From Candidatus Falkowbacteria bacterium HGW-Falkowbacteria-1 (GTDB lineage Bacteria; Patescibacteriota; Patescibacteriia; Patescibacteriales; UBA12465): a stretch of 64,000 nt of DNA. Positions 16,836 through 44,732 of the stretch are shown piece after piece; position 1 is the first letter of the stretch, and each line of letters opens with the position of its first letter. The position numbers were made by a program, and so were the translations under genes. The notes beneath the pieces are model-generated. The model was not told the DNA's origin. It was given only the letters and a program-made list of their open reading frames with translations, and ran no database searches. The stretch is from positions 266,707 through 330,706 of the forward strand of contig PHAI01000002.1 of NCBI GenBank assembly GCA_002840305.1. The letters run 5' to 3'.

Positions 16836-17849
16836 CTATTTAGTGGCCAGAATACTTCTTTTATAAGAATCCAAATTATCCAAAGCTATTCCGGTTCCCT
16901 TAGCGACGCAAAGAAGTGGATCGTCAGCAATATAAGCTGAAACTCCTAATGCTCTTGAAAAAAGTTGATCAATATTTTTGAGCAACGCCGTCCCTCCAGT
17001 CAAAACGATTCCCTTGTCTATTATATCAGCCACCAATTCTGGCGGAGTTTGTTGTAATATTTTTTTGGCAGTATTTAAAATTGTTTCTAATTCTCCAGAA
17101 ATGGCCGCAGTAACATCATTGCTATTAACTTCTACAGTTCGAGGAAGCCCACTGACACCATCTCTACCATTTATATCCATAACAAGTTTGTTGTCATCAT
17201 CTAAAAATAAAGCTGAACCAACTTTAATTTTCATTTCTTCAGCCGTTCTCTCTCCAATAACTAAATTATATTTTTTTCTAATATATTCTAAAATTGCTAA
17301 ATCCAATTTATTGCCACCGACCCTAACGGAAGTTGAAGAAACAACACCACCCAAAGATATAACGGCCATCTCAGAAGTCCCTCCACCGATATCAACGACC
17401 ATGTGACCATTGGCAGAGCTGATTGGAATATTGGCCCCAATAGCGGCCGCCACAGGCTCTTTAATGATATACGCAGCTTTGGCTCCAGCAGCAATCGTGG
17501 CTTCTATTACGGCCCTTCTTTCAGTTGATGAAATTCCAGCGGGAACAGCCACCATAACTTCTGGTCTAAAAATTCTAACCTTGCCTAAAGTTTTGTTTAT
17601 AAAATAACGAATCATGGCTTCGGTTGTGCGATAGTCAGCAATGACTCCATCTTTTAGCGGTTTCAAAGCTATGATAGTATCTGGTGTTCTGCCTAGCATA
17701 TCTTTAGCATCGTTTCCGACAGCCAAAATCTTGTTATCATCGATAGAAACAGCAACAACACTAGGTTCGTTAATAACCACGCCTCTTTTTGGCAAATAGA
17801 CCAAAGTATAGGTTGTGCCCAAATCAATTCCGATTCTTTTAGCAAACAT
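16836..17849 (-). CDS. mreB: Actin-like rod-shape protein MreB (orphan copy)
   Basis: IGIDLGTTYT, NEPSVVAV, VDIGGGTSE and VLTGGTALL. Confidence 0.85.
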   Translation of the reverse strand: MFAKRIGIDLGTTYTLVYLPKRGVVINEPSVVAVSIDDNKILAVGNDAKDMLGRTPDTIIALKPLKDGVIADYRTTEAMIRYFINKTLGKVRIFRPEVMVAVPAGISSTERRAVIEATIAAGAKAAYIIKEPVAAAIGANIPISSANGHMVVDIGGGTSEMAVISLGGVVSSTSVRVGGNKLDLAILEYIRKKYNLVIGERTAEEMKIKVGSALFLDDDNKLVMDINGRDGVSGLPRTVEVNSNDVTAAISGELETILNTAKKILQQTPPELVADIIDKGIVLTGGTALLKNIDQLFSRALGVSAYIADDPLLCVAKGTGIALDNLDSYKRSILATK

Positions 17850-17879
17850 AATTTTATTATCAGCTTTAAATATAAGTAT

Positions 17880-17908
17880 ATATTAGCTCTTAAGCTGTTT
17901 TTAGTCAA
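17880..17908 (-). promoter_or_regulatory. Sigma70-type promoter for mreB
   Basis: On the minus strand: TTGACT, a 17-nt spacer, then TAATAT. It lies between the RT stop and the mreB start. Confidence 0.45.
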
Positions 17909-17927
17909 TAGATTTTAATAAAAAACC

Positions 17928-18944
17928 TTATAATTCTCTAGTTTCTTCGCGATTCTTACTGTTTGCTAGCCTCAATATCATTAACTTCAATTTATAAGAA
18001 TTACCATGTTTAATTAACCCTAAATAAGAATTCAAAGAATCTTTTTTATTACTTTCTTTTAATTTATAAATCATTCTTCTTTTTGTTGATCTTCTTAAAA
18101 CTTTATACTCGGGAAAATTAATCCACCCCAAAAAATCAAGACCAGAAGAAACTGTTTTGACAAACGTTTTTTGAGGATGAATTTCTAATTTTAAATTTAA
18201 AAATAAAAATTCTTTAATCGGATTAATTTTATTCTCTAACCATTCCTTATTATCTGACATTATTACAAAATCATCGGCATAACGAATATAAAATTTGGCC
18301 TTAATTTTATGTTTTATAAATTGATCAAATATATTAAGATAAATATTGGCAAAAAGCTGAGAAGTGAGATTTCCCAATGGCAAACCCTTACCTTTTTTAA
18401 CTTGAAAGCTATAAATAATATTTTGCAAAAGACAAATAATATTTTCATCAGCAATATATTCATTTAAAATACCAAGCAATACTTGATGATCAATACTAGC
18501 AAAAAATTTTCTAATATCTCCTTTTAGCACCCAACAATTTTTGGTATTATTTTTACTAATTTTCAAAAAAAATTTATTAAATCTTGATACAGCTTTGTGC
18601 GTACCCTTATTTAAACGACAAGAATAACTATCAAATATAAAAATTTTATCGAAAAATGGATATAATTTACGATAAATAGCATGATGAAGTAATCGATCGC
18701 GAACATTAGCTTTATGAATATCTCTAATTTTTGGATCAAAAACTTTAAATGCCTTATAGCCACCGTGATTATATTTATGATATAATAGATCGTAATGTAA
18801 ATTTAAAAGATTGCCCATTAAGCTTATTCCAAACAATTGAACATCACGACGTCCACGCTTGCCATTTAGAAATTCGCCCCAAGCGCTTAACAAGTTATCT
18901 AAATCTATAATATCTTCAAATTTATGAGTCAATTTAATTTTCAT
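17928..18944 (-). CDS. DGR reverse transcriptase
   Basis: 338 aa. LPLGNLTSQLFANIYL is the DGR-typical [I/L]GxxxSQ motif. YIRYADDFVIM is the YxDD catalytic box. There is no maturase/endonuclease tail. It is adjacent to TR/VR. Confidence 0.9.
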   Translation of the reverse strand: MKIKLTHKFEDIIDLDNLLSAWGEFLNGKRGRRDVQLFGISLMGNLLNLHYDLLYHKYNHGGYKAFKVFDPKIRDIHKANVRDRLLHHAIYRKLYPFFDKIFIFDSYSCRLNKGTHKAVSRFNKFFLKISKNNTKNCWVLKGDIRKFFASIDHQVLLGILNEYIADENIICLLQNIIYSFQVKKGKGLPLGNLTSQLFANIYLNIFDQFIKHKIKAKFYIRYADDFVIMSDNKEWLENKINPIKEFLFLNLKLEIHPQKTFVKTVSSGLDFLGWINFPEYKVLRRSTKRRMIYKLKESNKKDSLNSYLGLIKHGNSYKLKLMILRLANSKNREETREL

Positions 18945-18957
18945 ACATCTAATTCTA

Positions 18958-18970
18958 CCCCCCCCCCCCC
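18958..18970. repeat. C13 (G13 on the minus strand) homopolymer
   Basis: I counted it directly: ccc at 18958-18960 plus ten c at 18961-18970. It lies between the RT start codon (18944) and the annotated avd start (19021). Confidence 0.95.
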
Positions 18971-19020
18971 TAAATTTACAACTAGCCCCACTCCTTCAAA
19001 AAAGCAAAGATACATATCTT

Positions 19021-19338
19021 TTGTGGTATTCTTATTTTAAAACATTACCCAAAGAACATCGTTTTAGTCTTGGTATTAAAATAGATAACCTTTTTGTAGA
19101 AATAATAGAATTTATTTCTGGAGCATTATATACAAACAAAGATGAAAAAATATTTTATATAAAAACTGCTATCAGAAAAAATGATGCTTTAAAATTACTA
19201 CTTTTAATTCTTTGGGAAACTAAATCAATAGATAATAAAAAATATTTAATGCTTTCCGAAAAAATCAATGAAATAGGTCGTATGCTCGGAGGTTGGGCTG
19301 GGCAAATTATAAAACAAAACTCCTCTATAAAAAAATAG
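19021..19338 (+). CDS. avd: Avd-like accessory variability determinant (four-helix bundle). The N-terminus is probably incomplete as annotated.
   Basis: LPKEHRFSLG..., a helical heptad character and a C-terminal EIGRMLGGWAGQ resemble Avd / 23S-IVS four-helix proteins. The only start is TTG. It lies on the opposite strand to RT, TR and VR. Confidence 0.7.
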   Translation: MWYSYFKTLPKEHRFSLGIKIDNLFVEIIEFISGALYTNKDEKIFYIKTAIRKNDALKLLLLILWETKSIDNKKYLMLSEKINEIGRMLGGWAGQIIKQNSSIKK

Positions 19339-19350
19339 AGGAGTTTTTTT
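19319..19350 (+). terminator. Intrinsic terminator after avd
   Basis: Stem actcctcta (19319-19327) pairs with tagaggagt (19336-19344). The loop is taaaaaaa and a T7 run follows. It abuts the TR boundary at 19351. Confidence 0.6.
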
Positions 19351-19484
19351 GAAACTTGCGAGAGCACAAAAGCAAACCCGTTATCACGATCCCACCTACT
19401 GCCAGAATTGTCATAGTTCGTATTCAGCCAGGAACCACTGCCATCGCGATTAGCGTTGAGCAATAAAGGATCGCCGTCAGAATT
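19351..19484 (-). repeat. DGR template repeat (TR)
   Basis: It is 134 nt and aligns without gaps to 19833-19966. It contains 28 adenines in the minus-strand sense. In frame it encodes NSDGDPLLLNANRDGSGSWLNTNYDNSGSRWDRDNGFAFVLSQV, which is AAY-rich. Confidence 0.9.
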
Positions 19485-19725
19485 ATGCAAAACACCGCCT
19501 ATTACACCGCCCTTTGAATACTCAAACAGGCTGAATATTATTCGGCATCATAATGCCATAGTGTTTTGCACCAAGTTTCGTTATATAGCATCAATATTTC
19601 ACTCTACCTACAGCCTTGGCCGAAGATATTCTCAAAATAATAACGCTCATCACAGTGGCCACCAACCTTGATCAATGACATATTCACTTTGACTGATTCT
19701 ATTTTAACATATTTACAAAATTTAT

Positions 19726-19764
19726 AAAAAAATAGCCTCGGCTTGCTTATGCAATCCGAGGCTA
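19726..19764 (-). terminator. Intrinsic terminator of the DGR target gene
   Basis: tagcctcgg (19733-19741) pairs with ccgaggcta (19756-19764), with an inner ttgc/gcaa pairing. On the minus strand a T7 run follows (A-run 19726-19732 on plus). Confidence 0.7.
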
Positions 19765-19765
19765 A

Positions 19766-19830
19766 AAATCAAAGGGCTAAAGGCCAAGACCTAAAGACTC
19801 AAAGAGTCAAAAAATCAAAAGACTAAGAAC
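19766..19830. repeat. Degenerate ~8-nt periodic repeat array
   Basis: The plus strand reads ggctaaag gccaagac ctaaagac tcaaagag tcaaaaaa tcaaaaga ctaagaac. It lies between the terminator hairpin and the target stop codon. Confidence 0.4.
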
Positions 19831-20443
19831 CCGAAACTTGCGAGAGCACAAAAGCAAACCCGCCACCACGAACCCACCTACTGCCAGAACCGCCACAGTC
19901 CGCATCCAGCCAGGAACCACTGCCATCGCGACCAGCGCTGAGCAATAAAGGATCGCCGTCAGAATCCTTAATAGGTTCGTGCATAACAACAATCCAATAT
20001 AAGCCCATAGCTTCAAGTTCTTTATCAGAGAATTTCTCCCTAAAAAGACAGGCCGCTTCGGCATTTGGTGTGGAAAGTTTGCGATTTTTAGCTTCTTTGC
20101 GGATGTTTTTAGTTATCCTATCGTTGTCGCTAAAAATCTCTCCCTTAAGGACAGCAATTTCATAAGTTACACCATTTGTTGGTTTAAAACTTTTTGAGCA
20201 TAAAATGCTCTTTGCATAATCACTGACGCGGAAGTCTTTACTTTCTAAACGTATAATCCACTGTTCGCCGGTTGCACCATCACTGGTAAGCGAAAAATAA
20301 ATTATACCATTTTCTTCACGCCATTTTTTTTCTGGCTCACTAACCAATGTTTCACCTCGTAAGAAACGAAGGGCACTTTCCATACCACCAAGTTTATTCA
20401 CAATGGCCTCAATTTGTCCTAAATTCAATTCTCCGTATTTCAT
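19823..20443 (-). CDS. DGR variable (target) protein, with a C-terminal CLec-like variable region and no signal peptide
   Basis: 206 aa. The C-terminus DSDGDPLLLSAGRDGSGSWLDADCGGSGSRWVRGGGFAFVLSQVSGS is encoded by the VR. The N-terminus MKYGELNLGQIEAIVNKLGG is hydrophilic. Confidence 0.85.
   Translation of the reverse strand: MKYGELNLGQIEAIVNKLGGMESALRFLRGETLVSEPEKKWREENGIIYFSLTSDGATGEQWIIRLESKDFRVSDYAKSILCSKSFKPTNGVTYEIAVLKGEIFSDNDRITKNIRKEAKNRKLSTPNAEAACLFREKFSDKELEAMGLYWIVVMHEPIKDSDGDPLLLSAGRDGSGSWLDADCGGSGSRWVRGGGFAFVLSQVSGS
19833..19966 (-). repeat. DGR variable repeat (VR)
   Basis: It has 15 mismatches to TR, and every one is at a TR adenine (14 A->G, 1 A->T). They affect 12 codons. 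The 3'-most 30 nt (19833-19862) are identical to TR. Confidence 0.9.
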
Positions 20444-20594
20444 AACAATAAGTATTTGCAGACTGTTTGTCTGTGTTTCTGCTGTCCGCAGTGGGAACTA
20501 TAACTATTATTAATTACAGCTAAAAAATAACTAAAAACATAATTATCTCTTAGCTGTAACTAATTTTTTGAGCTTTTCAAGGTACTAACTGCAT

Positions 20595-20623
20595 ATTATA
20601 TCATATTTGAAATATTTTGTCAA
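20595..20623 (-). promoter_or_regulatory. Consensus sigma70 promoter of the DGR target gene
   Basis: On the minus strand: cTATTGACA, a 17-nt spacer, then TATAAT (tgtcaa at 20618-20623, attata at 20595-20600). It predicts a leader of about 145 nt. Confidence 0.6.
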
Positions 20624-20629
20624 TAGCAA

Positions 20630-20655
20630 CAAAAAAACCAAGCTTGAAACTTGGT
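20630..20655 (-). terminator. Terminator of the ABC efflux operon
   Basis: Stem accaag / cttggt (20637-20642 / 20650-20655), followed by T7 on the minus strand. Confidence 0.55.
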
Positions 20656-20683
20656 GAGGAATATAGTAAATTTAACAATAAAA

Positions 20684-21946
20684 TTACTCCTTTCTCAAGG
20701 CATCAACTGGATTGAGTTTAGCTGCTTTTCTGGCCGGAAATATTCCAAAAATAATACCAAAAACAATAGCAAATACAATGGAAACAATAAAAGCTTTTAA
20801 TGGTAAAACTAGTTTCCAATCAAGACCAAAATAATTAGCCCCTAAATAAATTAAAAAAGAAAAAGCTACCCCCAAGATCATCCCTAAAAAAGCACCTATA
20901 AGGGTTATGAGAACCGATTCTGTCAAAAATTGCCTCATAATATCATCAAATTTTGCGCCGACCGCCTTTCTCAGCCCTATTTCGGGTGTTCTTTCGGAAA
21001 CTATGACATACATAACATTTAAAATTCCTACACCACCCACGAGCAAGGATATGGCAACAATTAAAAGCAGTAATATCGTTAATCCATCAGTTATGGTTTT
21101 GCTGGTATCTAACATTTCTTTCATGGTGGTGACTCTAAAATCATCTTTATCGGCATCTGAAATATTGTGATTATCTCTTAAAATATCAGTCATTATTTGT
21201 GCTGTTTCTTCCGCCATATTAGGGTTTTCTACCTGATGTACCATATACATATAATAATCTGTCCCCAGTATCTTCTTTTGCAAAGTTTTTATTGGTAAAA
21301 TTATTGCATCATCAAAACTAAATCCCATATTAGCACCTTTCTTTTTTAAAACTCCAACTACCTTATATTTACTCTTTTTAATAGTAATAATTTTATTTAT
21401 AGGATCCTGATCTTTAAAAATATCTTCGGCGGCATTACTACCCAAAACAACAACTTGAGATAAAGATTTGTCATCATCATCACTAAAAAAATACCCACTG
21501 GCGATTTCCGATTTATCAATTTCTATATAACTAGCACTAACCCCAAAAAGAAATCTTCCCTTAGACTCATTAGCGTAAGAAACCGTTTCTTGCCCCAAAA
21601 CAGCACCGTAGCCATCAATTACATTAGGGATTTTTTTTAAGTCCTCCAAGTCTCTTTCTTTCATGCTGGTTATTTGGGCGCCTCCCGCAACCGCCCTGGC
21701 GCTTTCCGTTTCAGCCTGCATTCCGGTTTTAGTATTTGGCACCCTTATCTCAGTTTGAACAATATTTGTACCAAAAGATTCTATTTGACCGATAATTAAA
21801 CTTCTTATTCCTTCTCCGGCTGAAAAAACAATTACAATGCTAGCTATACCAATAAGCATGCCCAAAACAGTGAGACCAGTTCTCATCTTGTTTTTAAGCA
21901 TCAACTTCAATGATAGTTTTGCAACTTCTATTATTCTCATAAACAA
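20684..21946 (-). CDS. ABC transporter permease, MacB/FtsX type
   Basis: N-terminal TM segment, a large extracytoplasmic domain and a C-terminal FtsX-like 3-TM module. It ends ARKAAKLNPVDALRKE. Confidence 0.85.
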   Translation of the reverse strand: MFMRIIEVAKLSLKLMLKNKMRTGLTVLGMLIGIASIVIVFSAGEGIRSLIIGQIESFGTNIVQTEIRVPNTKTGMQAETESARAVAGGAQITSMKERDLEDLKKIPNVIDGYGAVLGQETVSYANESKGRFLFGVSASYIEIDKSEIASGYFFSDDDDKSLSQVVVLGSNAAEDIFKDQDPINKIITIKKSKYKVVGVLKKKGANMGFSFDDAIILPIKTLQKKILGTDYYMYMVHQVENPNMAEETAQIMTDILRDNHNISDADKDDFRVTTMKEMLDTSKTITDGLTILLLLIVAISLLVGGVGILNVMYVIVSERTPEIGLRKAVGAKFDDIMRQFLTESVLITLIGAFLGMILGVAFSFLIYLGANYFGLDWKLVLPLKAFIVSIVFAIVFGIIFGIFPARKAAKLNPVDALRKE

Positions 21947-41809: not shown

Positions 41810-42376
41810 CTAGAGTACGCTTCTTTTTAAATGAAAAATGTATAAAGCGCTACTGAAGCAAAGTGTCGCAATTATAATAAACAAAGCCTGAAAACCAAAA
41901 AAAGTGACTAAACCACCGCCAACTATAGCTCCCAAAGCTGTTGTAAAATAATTAGTTGATTCCCATGCTCCCCATTGTGTCCCAGATTTATGACCATCAA
42001 TATGTTTAGAAAACACAGCGTCAAACGCTGGCGAATAAATCGCCTCACCAAGACCAATGATTGCCTGAACTATAAACAAAAAAACAATAGAATTAACCCA
42101 AAAATACAACAAGAAACCAGTGCCCATTATTAAATACCCTCCTACAATAATCAGTTCATTTTCTTTTATTTTGTCGCTATACTTTCCAGATATCAACGTT
42201 GTCAGACCGGCTACGAAGGCAAAAATACCTCCAGCGATACTAGCATCCATCAAATCCCCCCCTACCTTTTCTACAAATAAAGCATAAATAGGTCCTAACA
42301 TAGCTCCGGCCATAAGTATCATGGCATTAGTTAAAAGCAATATGCGTAGGGCTTTATTAAAAAATATTCCTTTCAT
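41810..42376 (-). CDS. Half-size (6-TM) MFS-like membrane protein
   Basis: 188 aa with six hydrophobic segments and a GKYSDK loop that resembles the MFS motif A region. Confidence 0.45.
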   Translation of the reverse strand: MKGIFFNKALRILLLTNAMILMAGAMLGPIYALFVEKVGGDLMDASIAGGIFAFVAGLTTLISGKYSDKIKENELIIVGGYLIMGTGFLLYFWVNSIVFLFIVQAIIGLGEAIYSPAFDAVFSKHIDGHKSGTQWGAWESTNYFTTALGAIVGGGLVTFFGFQALFIIIATLCFSSALYIFHLKRSVL

Positions 42377-43770: not shown

Positions 43771-44732
43771 AAAAACTTTTCTAAGGATTTTTTGAATCTA
43801 TCTATAAACTCAGGTCTTTTATCTTCTAAAAATAATTTTATAATATTGTTCTCAAACACAACTCCACTCGACCGCCCTCTTTTTTCCTTTAAACTTTTAG
43901 GCATTATTTTTAATTGTATTTTTTTAGATATTTTTTCTACCCAATTACTTCCATCCCCCTTGTCATTCCCGCACCCCCCCTTGTCATCTCGACCGAGCCC
44001 GCCGTAGAAGGGCGAGCGGAGAGATCCGTTTCTTTTGTCATTCCCGCCATAGGAATAGGAATCCCATATTTTCAAGTTTGGCAAGTAATTTTCAACCCAC
44101 TTATTTTCCATTTTAAATCTATCAAATATTTTATTTTTATTTACCAAAACCTCCAAGCCAACAATCCAGTAAACAAAATAAAAATCGTCTTGGTTGTATA
44201 AATATTTTTCCAAATTCAAACTATCTTCACTAATATAAAAACTAAGACAAATTTTATCCTTTTTTGTTTTTTTATTAGGTCTAATATTCAAAAACTTAGC
44301 AAAAAATACGCAAAAAAAACGAGTCAAAAAAATCTTATTTTTAGAACTAATGATAAATAAATCAATATCTCCATTATCTTTTAAATTGTGACTACTAATT
44401 ATATTGGAAACGGCCACGCCTTTAACAAAGGGCAAAAAAGATATTAACTGAGAAAATCTCTTGGCTATTTTTACTTTTCTCTTAAAATAATTGTACTTTT
44501 TAAATCGCTCTCCGACAATTTCTTCCCTGCCAGATAAAAAATAAAAACCATTTTTAATTTTTACCTTATCGTTCATTGATTCTAAAATGTCTGATAATTC
44601 AGCCAAGTCTATTTTAACGCTTAAATACTTATATATTTCGAATAGAGTTAATGGTTGATTAAATAAATCAAAAAACACCATGGTTTTAATAATGGCCGAT
44701 TTCAATTCTTCTGATTTTATCTGATTATTCAT
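43767..44732 (-). CDS. Hypothetical protein carrying an in-frame GC-rich repeat insertion
   Basis: The ORF is continuous through the GC-rich block. NGDIDLFIIS hints at a nucleotidyltransferase fold, but the evidence is weak. I chose the start at MNNQIKSEE. Confidence 0.45.
   Translation of the reverse strand: MNNQIKSEELKSAIIKTMVFFDLFNQPLTLFEIYKYLSVKIDLAELSDILESMNDKVKIKNGFYFLSGREEIVGERFKKYNYFKRKVKIAKRFSQLISFLPFVKGVAVSNIISSHNLKDNGDIDLFIISSKNKIFLTRFFCVFFAKFLNIRPNKKTKKDKICLSFYISEDSLNLEKYLYNQDDFYFVYWIVGLEVLVNKNKIFDRFKMENKWVENYLPNLKIWDSYSYGGNDKRNGSLRSPFYGGLGRDDKGGCGNDKGDGSNWVEKISKKIQLKIMPKSLKEKRGRSSGVVFENNIIKLFLEDKRPEFIDRFKKSLEKFL
43951..44066. repeat. GC-rich short-repeat block (three degenerate units starting TTGTCAT...)
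   Basis: tgtcattcccgc occurs at 43961-43972 and again at 44036-44047. A ttgtcatctcgaccgagc..gcggagagatc unit lies at 43981-44025. The local GC is far above the flanking sequence. Confidence 0.7.

Follow-up and report, generated by a model that had tools for sequence, protein, structure and literature searches.

Is a run of 13 cytosines at the 5′ end of an avd gene, in DNA of otherwise low GC content, an error of assembly or a genetic switch? The run lies in a 64,000 nt stretch of contig PHAI01000002.1 of Candidatus Falkowbacteria bacterium HGW-Falkowbacteria-1 (the window), a Candidate Phyla Radiation (CPR) bacterium, within a diversity-generating retroelement (DGR), a targeted-hypermutation system in which Avd is the accessory protein of a reverse transcriptase (RT). 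An earlier reading of the same DNA (the original prediction) had set a miscalled tract and a switch side by side. The comparisons described here support a hypermutable switch over a one-off error, through the discovery of a C12 allele and of a tract that recurs in the family, with a partial effect of homopolymer calling possible at this locus. We consider it likely, though well short of certain, that the run is a conserved slipped-strand contingency tract that toggles Avd and hence DGR activity. The parts of the gene are as follows.

nt 18924–18957, plus strand: 5′ part of avd, which opens with the conserved ATG and reaches to the tract (MSQFNFHTSNST); modelled as disordered and, over the first 21 nt, antisense to RT codons 1–7
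nt 18958–18970, plus strand: poly-C tract, a frameshift-prone simple repeat, present as C12 on identical flanks in contigs L163 and L164
nt 18971–19338, plus strand: Avd body, which begins with helix 1 and ends with the stop codon; in the C13 allele its frame is +1 with respect to ATG 18924
nt 19038–19040, plus strand: TAA stop that ends the frame of ATG 18924 after 38 codons in the C13 allele

The run reads C13 on the plus strand and G13 on the RT strand, and inspection of the sequence confirmed it in avd codons 12–16. The GC content of the window is 32.5%, the second-longest C run in the 64 kb is 7 nt and the longest G run 5 nt, leaving C13 as the sole C or G run above 7; by our own estimate, the chance expectation for a run of 13 in this length is about 1e-5. 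The other C runs of at least 7 in the window are two C7 tracts, at nt 42256–42262 and 43974–43980, with no further ones. The original prediction had described the reading frames correctly. When starts are confined to ATG, GTG and TTG, the avd open reading frame (ORF) begins at TTG 19021 and specifies 105 aa; its frame is open upstream to nt 18928 (VNLIFIHLILPPPPLNLQLAPLLQ...) without any of these three codons; and the frame that begins at ATG 18924 (MSQFNFHTSNSTPPPPKFTT..., with MSQFNFHTSNSTPPPP leading into the run) stops at nt 19038–19040. Loss of one C was predicted to fuse the two frames into a protein of 137 aa, and precisely this protein occurs in public data. Two figures required correction: eight residues, not about nine, lie ahead of the LPKEH turn in the 105-aa form, and helix 1, expected to span 25–35 residues, has 17 in an AlphaFold model (residues 22–38 of the 137-aa form). 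In the window, the stretch from the tract to helix 1 holds no ATG, GTG or TTG; a TTA of the window is a TTG in many relatives.

Because of the tract, this one gene has received three different gene models. The GenBank record (PKM91527.1, P0001 in our set) annotates avd as a protein of 133 aa (MFIHLILPPPPLNLQ...) from a non-canonical ATT at nt 18937, the JGI and Logan calls are of 105 aa, and the ENA call, made on a C12 allele, is of 137 aa. The ATT start was rejected as it has no comparative support, the homologues using the ATG of the other frame. For the same reason, and since the neighbouring genes are intact under table 11 (MreB, 337 aa; a glycosyltransferase, 404 aa; FtsX-type permeases), an alternative genetic code (TGA = Gly) that would open the avd frame upstream was also rejected. 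Codon choice within the run is unusual. CCC is the rarest Pro codon, at 8.9% of the Pro codons in the long ORFs of the window, yet the Pro run consists of CCC only, four in a row, which points to selection at the DNA level. Contingency loci are recognised by a G or C run of at least about 7–8 nt in an ORF or promoter, as C13 is in avd, and by changes in length that move the gene into or out of frame; here C13 is out of frame while C12 gives the 137-aa protein.

Judged by its homologues, the true start of avd is ATG 18924, and the fused 137-aa ORF is the ancestral gene. When the fused sequence served as a protein query, 456 relatives were recovered, every one from a CPR/Patescibacteria-type source. 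They include more than 50 homologues of 135–144 aa that are 54–76% identical, dozens of them covering 100% of the query. The common N-terminus, found in dozens of homologues of 136–138 aa, is M-x-Q-x-N-x-H-x-S-N-S-T-P-P-P, followed by QL-PLLQK, and individual N-termini (e.g., MNQFNLHTSHSTPPQQFQLVPLLQK, MTQLNLHASNSTPPPTNLQLIPLLQR and MTQLNFHTSNSTPPPPPPINLQLIPLLQK) are clearly homologous to the segment that is out of frame in the window. Avd matches the Pfam family bAvd (PF22296; E = 1e-12, 48.9 bits against a cut-off of 40). Alignment to an Avd profile had been proposed as a check on the extended product, and the N-terminal extension moves the start of the match from profile position 15 to 5, so that it fills bAvd positions 5–14, and it provides most of helix 1. 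In the AlphaFold model of the 137-aa protein (52-sequence alignment; predicted local distance difference test score, pLDDT, 86.7), residues 1–19 are disordered and helices at residues 22–38, 43–68, 72–98 and 104–136 form a four-helix bundle. Foldseek aligned the model with bAvd of the Bordetella phage (4dwl) at a template modelling (TM) score of 0.88 and a root-mean-square deviation (rmsd) of 1.5 Å, and the model also superposes, across all four helices, on the Avd chains of cryo-electron microscopy structures of a DGR ribonucleoprotein (8ub7). A sequence search of the PDB with the family profile gave no match, and the fold relation came from the structure search. TTG 19021 corresponds to residue 33 of the 137-aa form, so the 105-aa product would, on this model, be without 11 of the 17 residues of helix 1.

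Both alleles are found on what is otherwise the same DNA. An exact-sequence look-up of the predicted C12 product, 137 aa (MSQFNFHTSNSTPPPLNLQ...), found it as an ENA protein (P0121) encoded by three contigs, two of which were retrieved. The first, L163 (568 kb, ERZ27239243), carries C12 and shows 0 mismatches to the window across flanks of 3034 and 3368 nt (6402 nt), which include the variable repeat (VR) of the DGR; the second, L164 (ERZ27239241), carries C12 with 0 mismatches across flanks of 35 and 511 nt. C13 is carried by the NCBI (P0001), JGI (L002) and Logan (L001, L165) assemblies. The tract is thus polymorphic on identical flanks (C12 versus C13, 0/6402 mismatches), a further mark of contingency loci. 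The ENA, JGI, NCBI and Logan assemblies may share reads, and the split means either a mixed population (or one that varies from sample to sample) or reads that are ambiguous at the tract. If the latter, the true tract could be C12 and the gene intact, with a C13 miscall spread through several assemblies of one set of reads. At 12–13-mers, stutter from Illumina sequencing and PCR grows, and the identity of the C12 flanks to the window, VR included, may reflect a shared population or shared reads. A miscall sits less well with C13 having emerged in three separately produced assemblies and C12 in three ENA contigs, given that a homogeneous population should yield one consensus.

The relatives of the gene extend the comparison well beyond this genome. 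The survey drew on 160 loci that encode relatives, 80 of them in species-representative genomes and the other 80 in metagenomes; each was anchored on the Avd body, and 139 are non-redundant. The original prediction had proposed looking for a homopolymer at the same place in homologous DGRs, and a run of at least seven C is there in 117/139 loci, about half of them out of frame.

C run of 7 nt or longer (range 7–19, mode 9–10): 117 loci, 54 in frame with an upstream ATG and 63 out of frame
C5–C6: 9 loci, 6 in frame with an upstream ATG and 3 out of frame
No C run of at least 5: 13 loci, 11 in frame with an upstream ATG and 2 out of frame

Among the 63 out-of-frame tract loci, 34 need a shift of −1 and 21 a shift of +1, while six are ambiguous and two are without an upstream ATG. 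The in-frame share of the tract loci is 46%, against 95% for an ordinary gene (p ~1e-49), and loci with and without a tract differ in the proportion in frame (Fisher p = 0.016). The two tract-free exceptions are L076, which has a short in-frame ATG start, and L053, which has a different arrangement. The out-of-frame loci retain a stop-free Avd body of normal length in 59/63 cases, the other four running off the contig, and a canonical start between the tract and helix 1 is missing in 50/63. With their Avd bodies intact, these loci are no decaying pseudogenes, and pseudogene decay was also rejected for the window, where RT, template repeat (TR) and VR are intact.

The tract evolves faster than the sequence around it, and its length is the main difference between close relatives. 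Loci L017 and L018 have flanks that are 100% identical and are distinguished by the tract alone, C8 and C9, respectively; the same is true of L097 and L140, with C9 (in frame) and C10 (out of frame), and of L098–L099 and L143, with C7 (in frame) and C8 (out of frame). When loci were clustered at an identity of at least 90% in the Avd body, tract length varied in 7/8 clusters and both frame states were present in 4/8. In two relatives, other repeats occupy the same site. In L078, a (CAAC)x7.8 tetranucleotide repeat (nt 2533–2563) stands at the tract position and is in frame in the assembly, and in L042 a GA dinucleotide repeat (nt ~2470–2490) stands there, also in frame; the latter was seen in the sequence and was not reported by Tandem Repeats Finder (TRF). 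The closest distinct relatives of the window (92% identity; L003/L085, with proteins P0002, P0003, P0123 and P0124) carry an interrupted tract, ACCTCCCCCC, and are out of frame. This group has a TTG in the frame of the body directly after the tract, giving an Avd of 120 aa (MQLAPLLQ...) with a full helix 1, whereas the window has TTA; the TTG is a possible tract-independent start without a counterpart in the window.

Out-of-frame alleles as short as C7–C10 occur family-wide, including in curated Illumina groundwater metagenome-assembled genomes (e.g., L008, L031 and L061), and consensus errors at these lengths, where Illumina consensus is reliable, are unlikely. Tract-free relatives are almost always in frame, and the conserved, variable tract stands even if C13 is wrong. 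Taken with the separate assemblies described above, this makes it quite improbable that C13 is simply a miscall of an intact C12 gene.

The window carries a complete DGR on the minus strand, in the order target/VR – TR – (avd, on the opposite strand) – RT, and its other parts are listed below.

nt 17928–18944, minus strand: DGR reverse transcriptase gene, 338 aa (Pfam RVT_1, E = 2e-25)
nt 19351–19483, minus strand: template repeat (TR), 133 nt, 89% identical to VR
nt 19833–19965, minus strand: variable repeat (VR), 3′-terminal part of the target gene (nt 19823–20443, 206 aa)

All 14 differences between TR and VR are at TR adenines (14/14); an RT beside the repeats, adenine-only TR/VR differences, an Avd bundle and the TR-(avd)-RT order are found together. 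The order with avd on the reverse strand between TR and RT is the ‘B3’ architecture, which accounts for 90% of CPR DGRs (Wu et al. 2018, PMC5758913). The start codons of avd and RT overlap head to head by 21 nt (nt 18924–18944): avd codons 1–7 (MSQFNFH) are antisense to RT codons 1–7 (MKIKLTH), each ATG is the reverse complement of the His-7 codon of the partner gene, and the overlap is kept in many relatives. In the C12 assembly, RT is called as a protein of 321 aa (L163, nt 2005–2970), presumably shortened by the gene caller to avoid overlap with the 137-aa avd, and RT N-termini in loci with overlapping avd and RT may be systematically mis-annotated. L164 is a stand-alone contig of 558 nt that carries avd only, with C12, from 1 nt before the ATG into TR. 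Its break at TR is expected because of the TR/VR repeat; the break beside the tract might be an assembly-graph fork caused by tract heterogeneity. The TR region also lies inside a minus-strand ORF of 111 aa (nt 19155–19490), which is antisense through the 3′ part of avd and mimics the C-terminus of the target protein (DGDPLLLNANRDGSGSW...); it is probably a by-product of the TR/VR homology and no gene. An Rfam scan of nt 17500–20800 returned sub-threshold chance hits only.

In the switch that we favour, slipped-strand mispairing during replication would alter the length of the tract, and the length would set the four-helix body of Avd in or out of frame with ATG 18924. C12 would be the ON state, giving the 137-aa Avd. 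C13, the state of the window, would be OFF: translation from ATG 18924 would end after 38 codons, and a product begun at TTG 19021 would be without most of helix 1. In the DGR of the Bordetella phage, Avd is needed together with RT for cDNA synthesis, and therefore loss of Avd function in the OFF state should silence adenine mutagenesis of the target. Within a population, mutagenesis of the target would then be turned on and off stochastically and reversibly.

Several points weigh against a switch of this kind. The requirement of this CPR RT for Avd is extrapolated from the Bordetella phage system. All tract lengths are those of consensus assemblies, so heterogeneity within a population and reversibility are predictions, and the difference between C12 and C13 here could have arisen where different assemblers dealt with one set of noisy homopolymer reads. 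The surveyed loci are phylogenetically non-independent. In L062 and L138, PPP is encoded as CCG CCG CCG, without a homopolymer, and part of the conservation is therefore at the protein level. Lastly, the share of tract loci in frame, 46%, exceeds only moderately the 33% that an irrelevant frame would give (p = 0.003), and such a share would also fit a tract whose length is irrelevant, Avd being supplied by transcriptional or ribosomal slippage.

This last point leads to a rival account at the level of expression, in which RNA polymerase or ribosomes slip on the tract, all alleles yield some Avd, at a low and noisy level, and genomic length is near-neutral, with no heritable switch in play. The near-random frames of the tract loci (54 in frame, 34 and 21 needing −1 and +1) are what it would predict, the tracts are long (mostly 9–10, up to 19), and out-of-frame alleles are very common and have intact Avd bodies, as if still expressed. 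CCC-C sites are prone to +1 shifts, poly-Pro stalls ribosomes, and a homopolymer allows perfect re-pairing. Against this, shifts in both directions would be required, and the loci conserve neither a fixed slippery geometry nor a stimulatory element; in-frame alleles are more frequent than one-third, by the test given above; C7–C8 tracts, which also include out-of-frame cases, are short for transcriptional slippage to be efficient; and the repeats of (CAAC)n and GA type found in the tract's place are classic DNA-level switches and no slippage sites. We regard expression-level slippage as an unlikely explanation; it does not exclude a DNA switch, and the two may coexist. A programmed ribosomal frameshift or transcriptional slippage of fixed direction was a separate candidate and fails, as lengths range over 7–19 and loci needing −1 (34), +1 (21) or no shift (54) occur together.

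On the minus strand, the G13 run lies 13 nt upstream of the RT start codon (ATG, 18944), as the original prediction had noted. The tract could therefore serve RT as well as, or in place of, avd. Four elements bear on transcription of the locus.

nt 18952–18957, minus strand: TAGAAT, a −10-like hexamer with 7 nt between it and the RT ATG, putative promoter of a leaderless RT mRNA
nt 18976–18981, minus strand: TTGTAA, a tentative −35-like hexamer, with an 18-nt spacer to TAGAAT that includes G13
nt 18911–18916, plus strand: TATCTT, a −10-like hexamer with 7 nt between it and the avd ATG, putative leaderless avd promoter, inside RT codons 10–12
nt 19316–19347, no strand assigned: perfect hairpin of 13 bp (AAAACTCCTCTAT...ATAGAGGAGTTTT), bordered on each side by a T run, overlapping the avd stop and 4 nt after the end of TR

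The six bases directly 3′ of the G run on the RT strand are T (80%), A (71%), n, n, A (64%) and T (68%). TANNNT follows the run directly in 71/117 loci (61%), against a per-position background of 2.1%, and in most of these the ATG comes 7 nt later; the hexamers include TAGAAT, TAGTAT, TATTAT, TACTAT, TAACAT, TACTCT and TACACT. TAnnnT, 7 nt and ATG together are probably a −10 box with a leaderless RT mRNA. In a consensus scan, the spacer between TTGTAA and TAGAAT is 18 nt with G13 and 17 nt with G12, and no clearly conserved −35 element was found across the relatives with a tract. TANNNT also occupies positions −13 to −8 of the avd ATG in 77/115 loci, a count that is confounded, as this stretch encodes conserved RT residues. 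The hairpin looks like a two-way terminator after avd and TR that would separate the TR transcript from RT, and the arrangement suggests a locus of three putative transcription units. The G run was also considered as the Shine–Dalgarno sequence of RT and rejected, a spacing of 13 nt being too long and TAnnnT plus 7 nt fitting a −10 box and leaderless start better. The original suggestion that the tract may affect RT expression gains support in that the G run abuts a conserved −10-like hexamer that stands 7 nt from the RT ATG; the effect itself is one that we infer.

Taken to its limit, this evidence would make RT the main reason for the tract, as a promoter spacer, extended −10 or G-rich ribosome-binding region, its place in the avd frame being incidental, with avd using a non-canonical start or being dispensable. 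The run is exactly 13 nt from the RT ATG in 54 loci, TAnnnT follows it in the majority of tract loci, the candidate pair TTGTAA and TAGAAT spans it, and the NCBI annotation does begin avd at ATT. In clades where the RT start is 30–45 nt or more from the run (e.g., L065, L047 and L058), however, the run still lies at avd codons 3–6, and its primary association is therefore with avd. The 13-nt distance is long for Shine–Dalgarno spacing, the ATT is unconserved, homologues starting instead at the other frame's ATG, and (CAAC)n or GA repeats are unfit as a G-rich RT element. We consider a tract kept mainly for RT very improbable, while a role in RT expression alongside the avd switch is likely, and tract length may tune RT transcription as a second function, given that the run abuts the −10-like hexamer. 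A bolder proposal combines the two: a single conserved repeat, acting through the avd frame on one strand and through the geometry of a promoter for leaderless RT mRNA on the other, would be the master switch, a stochastic one, of targeted hypermutation across much of the CPR, with heritable, reversible diversifying and frozen states of the target protein. It would be a form of second-order evolvability, with one hypermutable site in control of a second hypermutation system. This is possible, although on balance we doubt it.

Repeat-mediated phase variation and DGRs are each well known, and the locus resembles published examples of both. The phasome of Campylobacter jejuni and the pilC, lgt, hpuA and hmbR genes of Neisseria likewise have, in AT-rich or otherwise unremarkable genomes, G/C homopolymers of about 8–13 nt near the 5′ end of an ORF (e.g., PMC6321876 and PMC3786947). 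In those contingency loci too, changes of ±1 in length move the frame and related strains differ in length. The Campylobacter and Neisseria cases mostly control surface structures, restriction-modification methyltransferases and receptors of host-associated pathogens, whereas here the bacteria are uncultivated CPR members from groundwater, the gene specifies the accessory protein of a retroelement for targeted hypermutation, switching is predicted from assemblies, and the tract is conserved over a very broad clade, with Avd identity down to ~52%. A repeat just upstream of a −10-like element, whose length could alter the geometry of a promoter, recalls the promoter-spacer repeats of the Bordetella fim genes (a C-stretch; PMC1891110 for the Bordetella tracts) and of opc and porA of N. 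meningitidis, and divergent genes with overlapping control regions are found at the (TA)n repeat of hifA-hifB in H. influenzae. Unlike these promoter-spacer repeats, the tract here also codes for the divergent gene, and it has an uncertain −35 element and a putative promoter recognised by its motifs.

As a DGR, the element resembles that of Bordetella phage BPP-1 (bAvd-bRT) in its RVT_1 RT, Avd four-helix bundle and adenine-only TR/VR differences, and it shares with the B3 DGRs of the CPR an avd inverted between TR and RT. It is unlike the descriptions of bAvd or of B3 DGRs in the papers searched in having a repeat tract or proposed switch and avd and RT starts that overlap by 21 nt. In the literature on DGRs or Avd together with phase variation or homopolymer tracts, we found no description of an avd repeat tract or of a phase-variable DGR; a prior mention in the main paper on CPR DGRs (Paul et al. 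2017, Nat Microbiol) is possible, and Wu et al. 2018 (PMC5758913) makes no mention of a repeat tract in avd. Slippery homopolymers that join two frames of one protein are also found in prfB, dnaX and the transposases of insertion sequence (IS) elements. In those genes the sites are fixed in length and direction, whereas here both vary among close relatives and in-frame alleles are common.

When a target protein works, constitutive adenine mutagenesis of it ought to carry a cost. If the tract acts as proposed, its conservation where avd begins, in most DGRs of the CPR type, would offer a simple solution to how DGR activity is controlled in nature, a question with few answers so far, namely bet-hedging through stochastic ON and OFF states. 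For annotation, about half of these avd genes are misannotated, be it as truncated, with non-canonical starts (as in the NCBI record here) or as absent, and surveys of DGRs that demand an intact Avd will undercount or misclassify such elements. The fraction of in-frame tracts among metagenomic reads could, in turn, report the share of cells with an active DGR.

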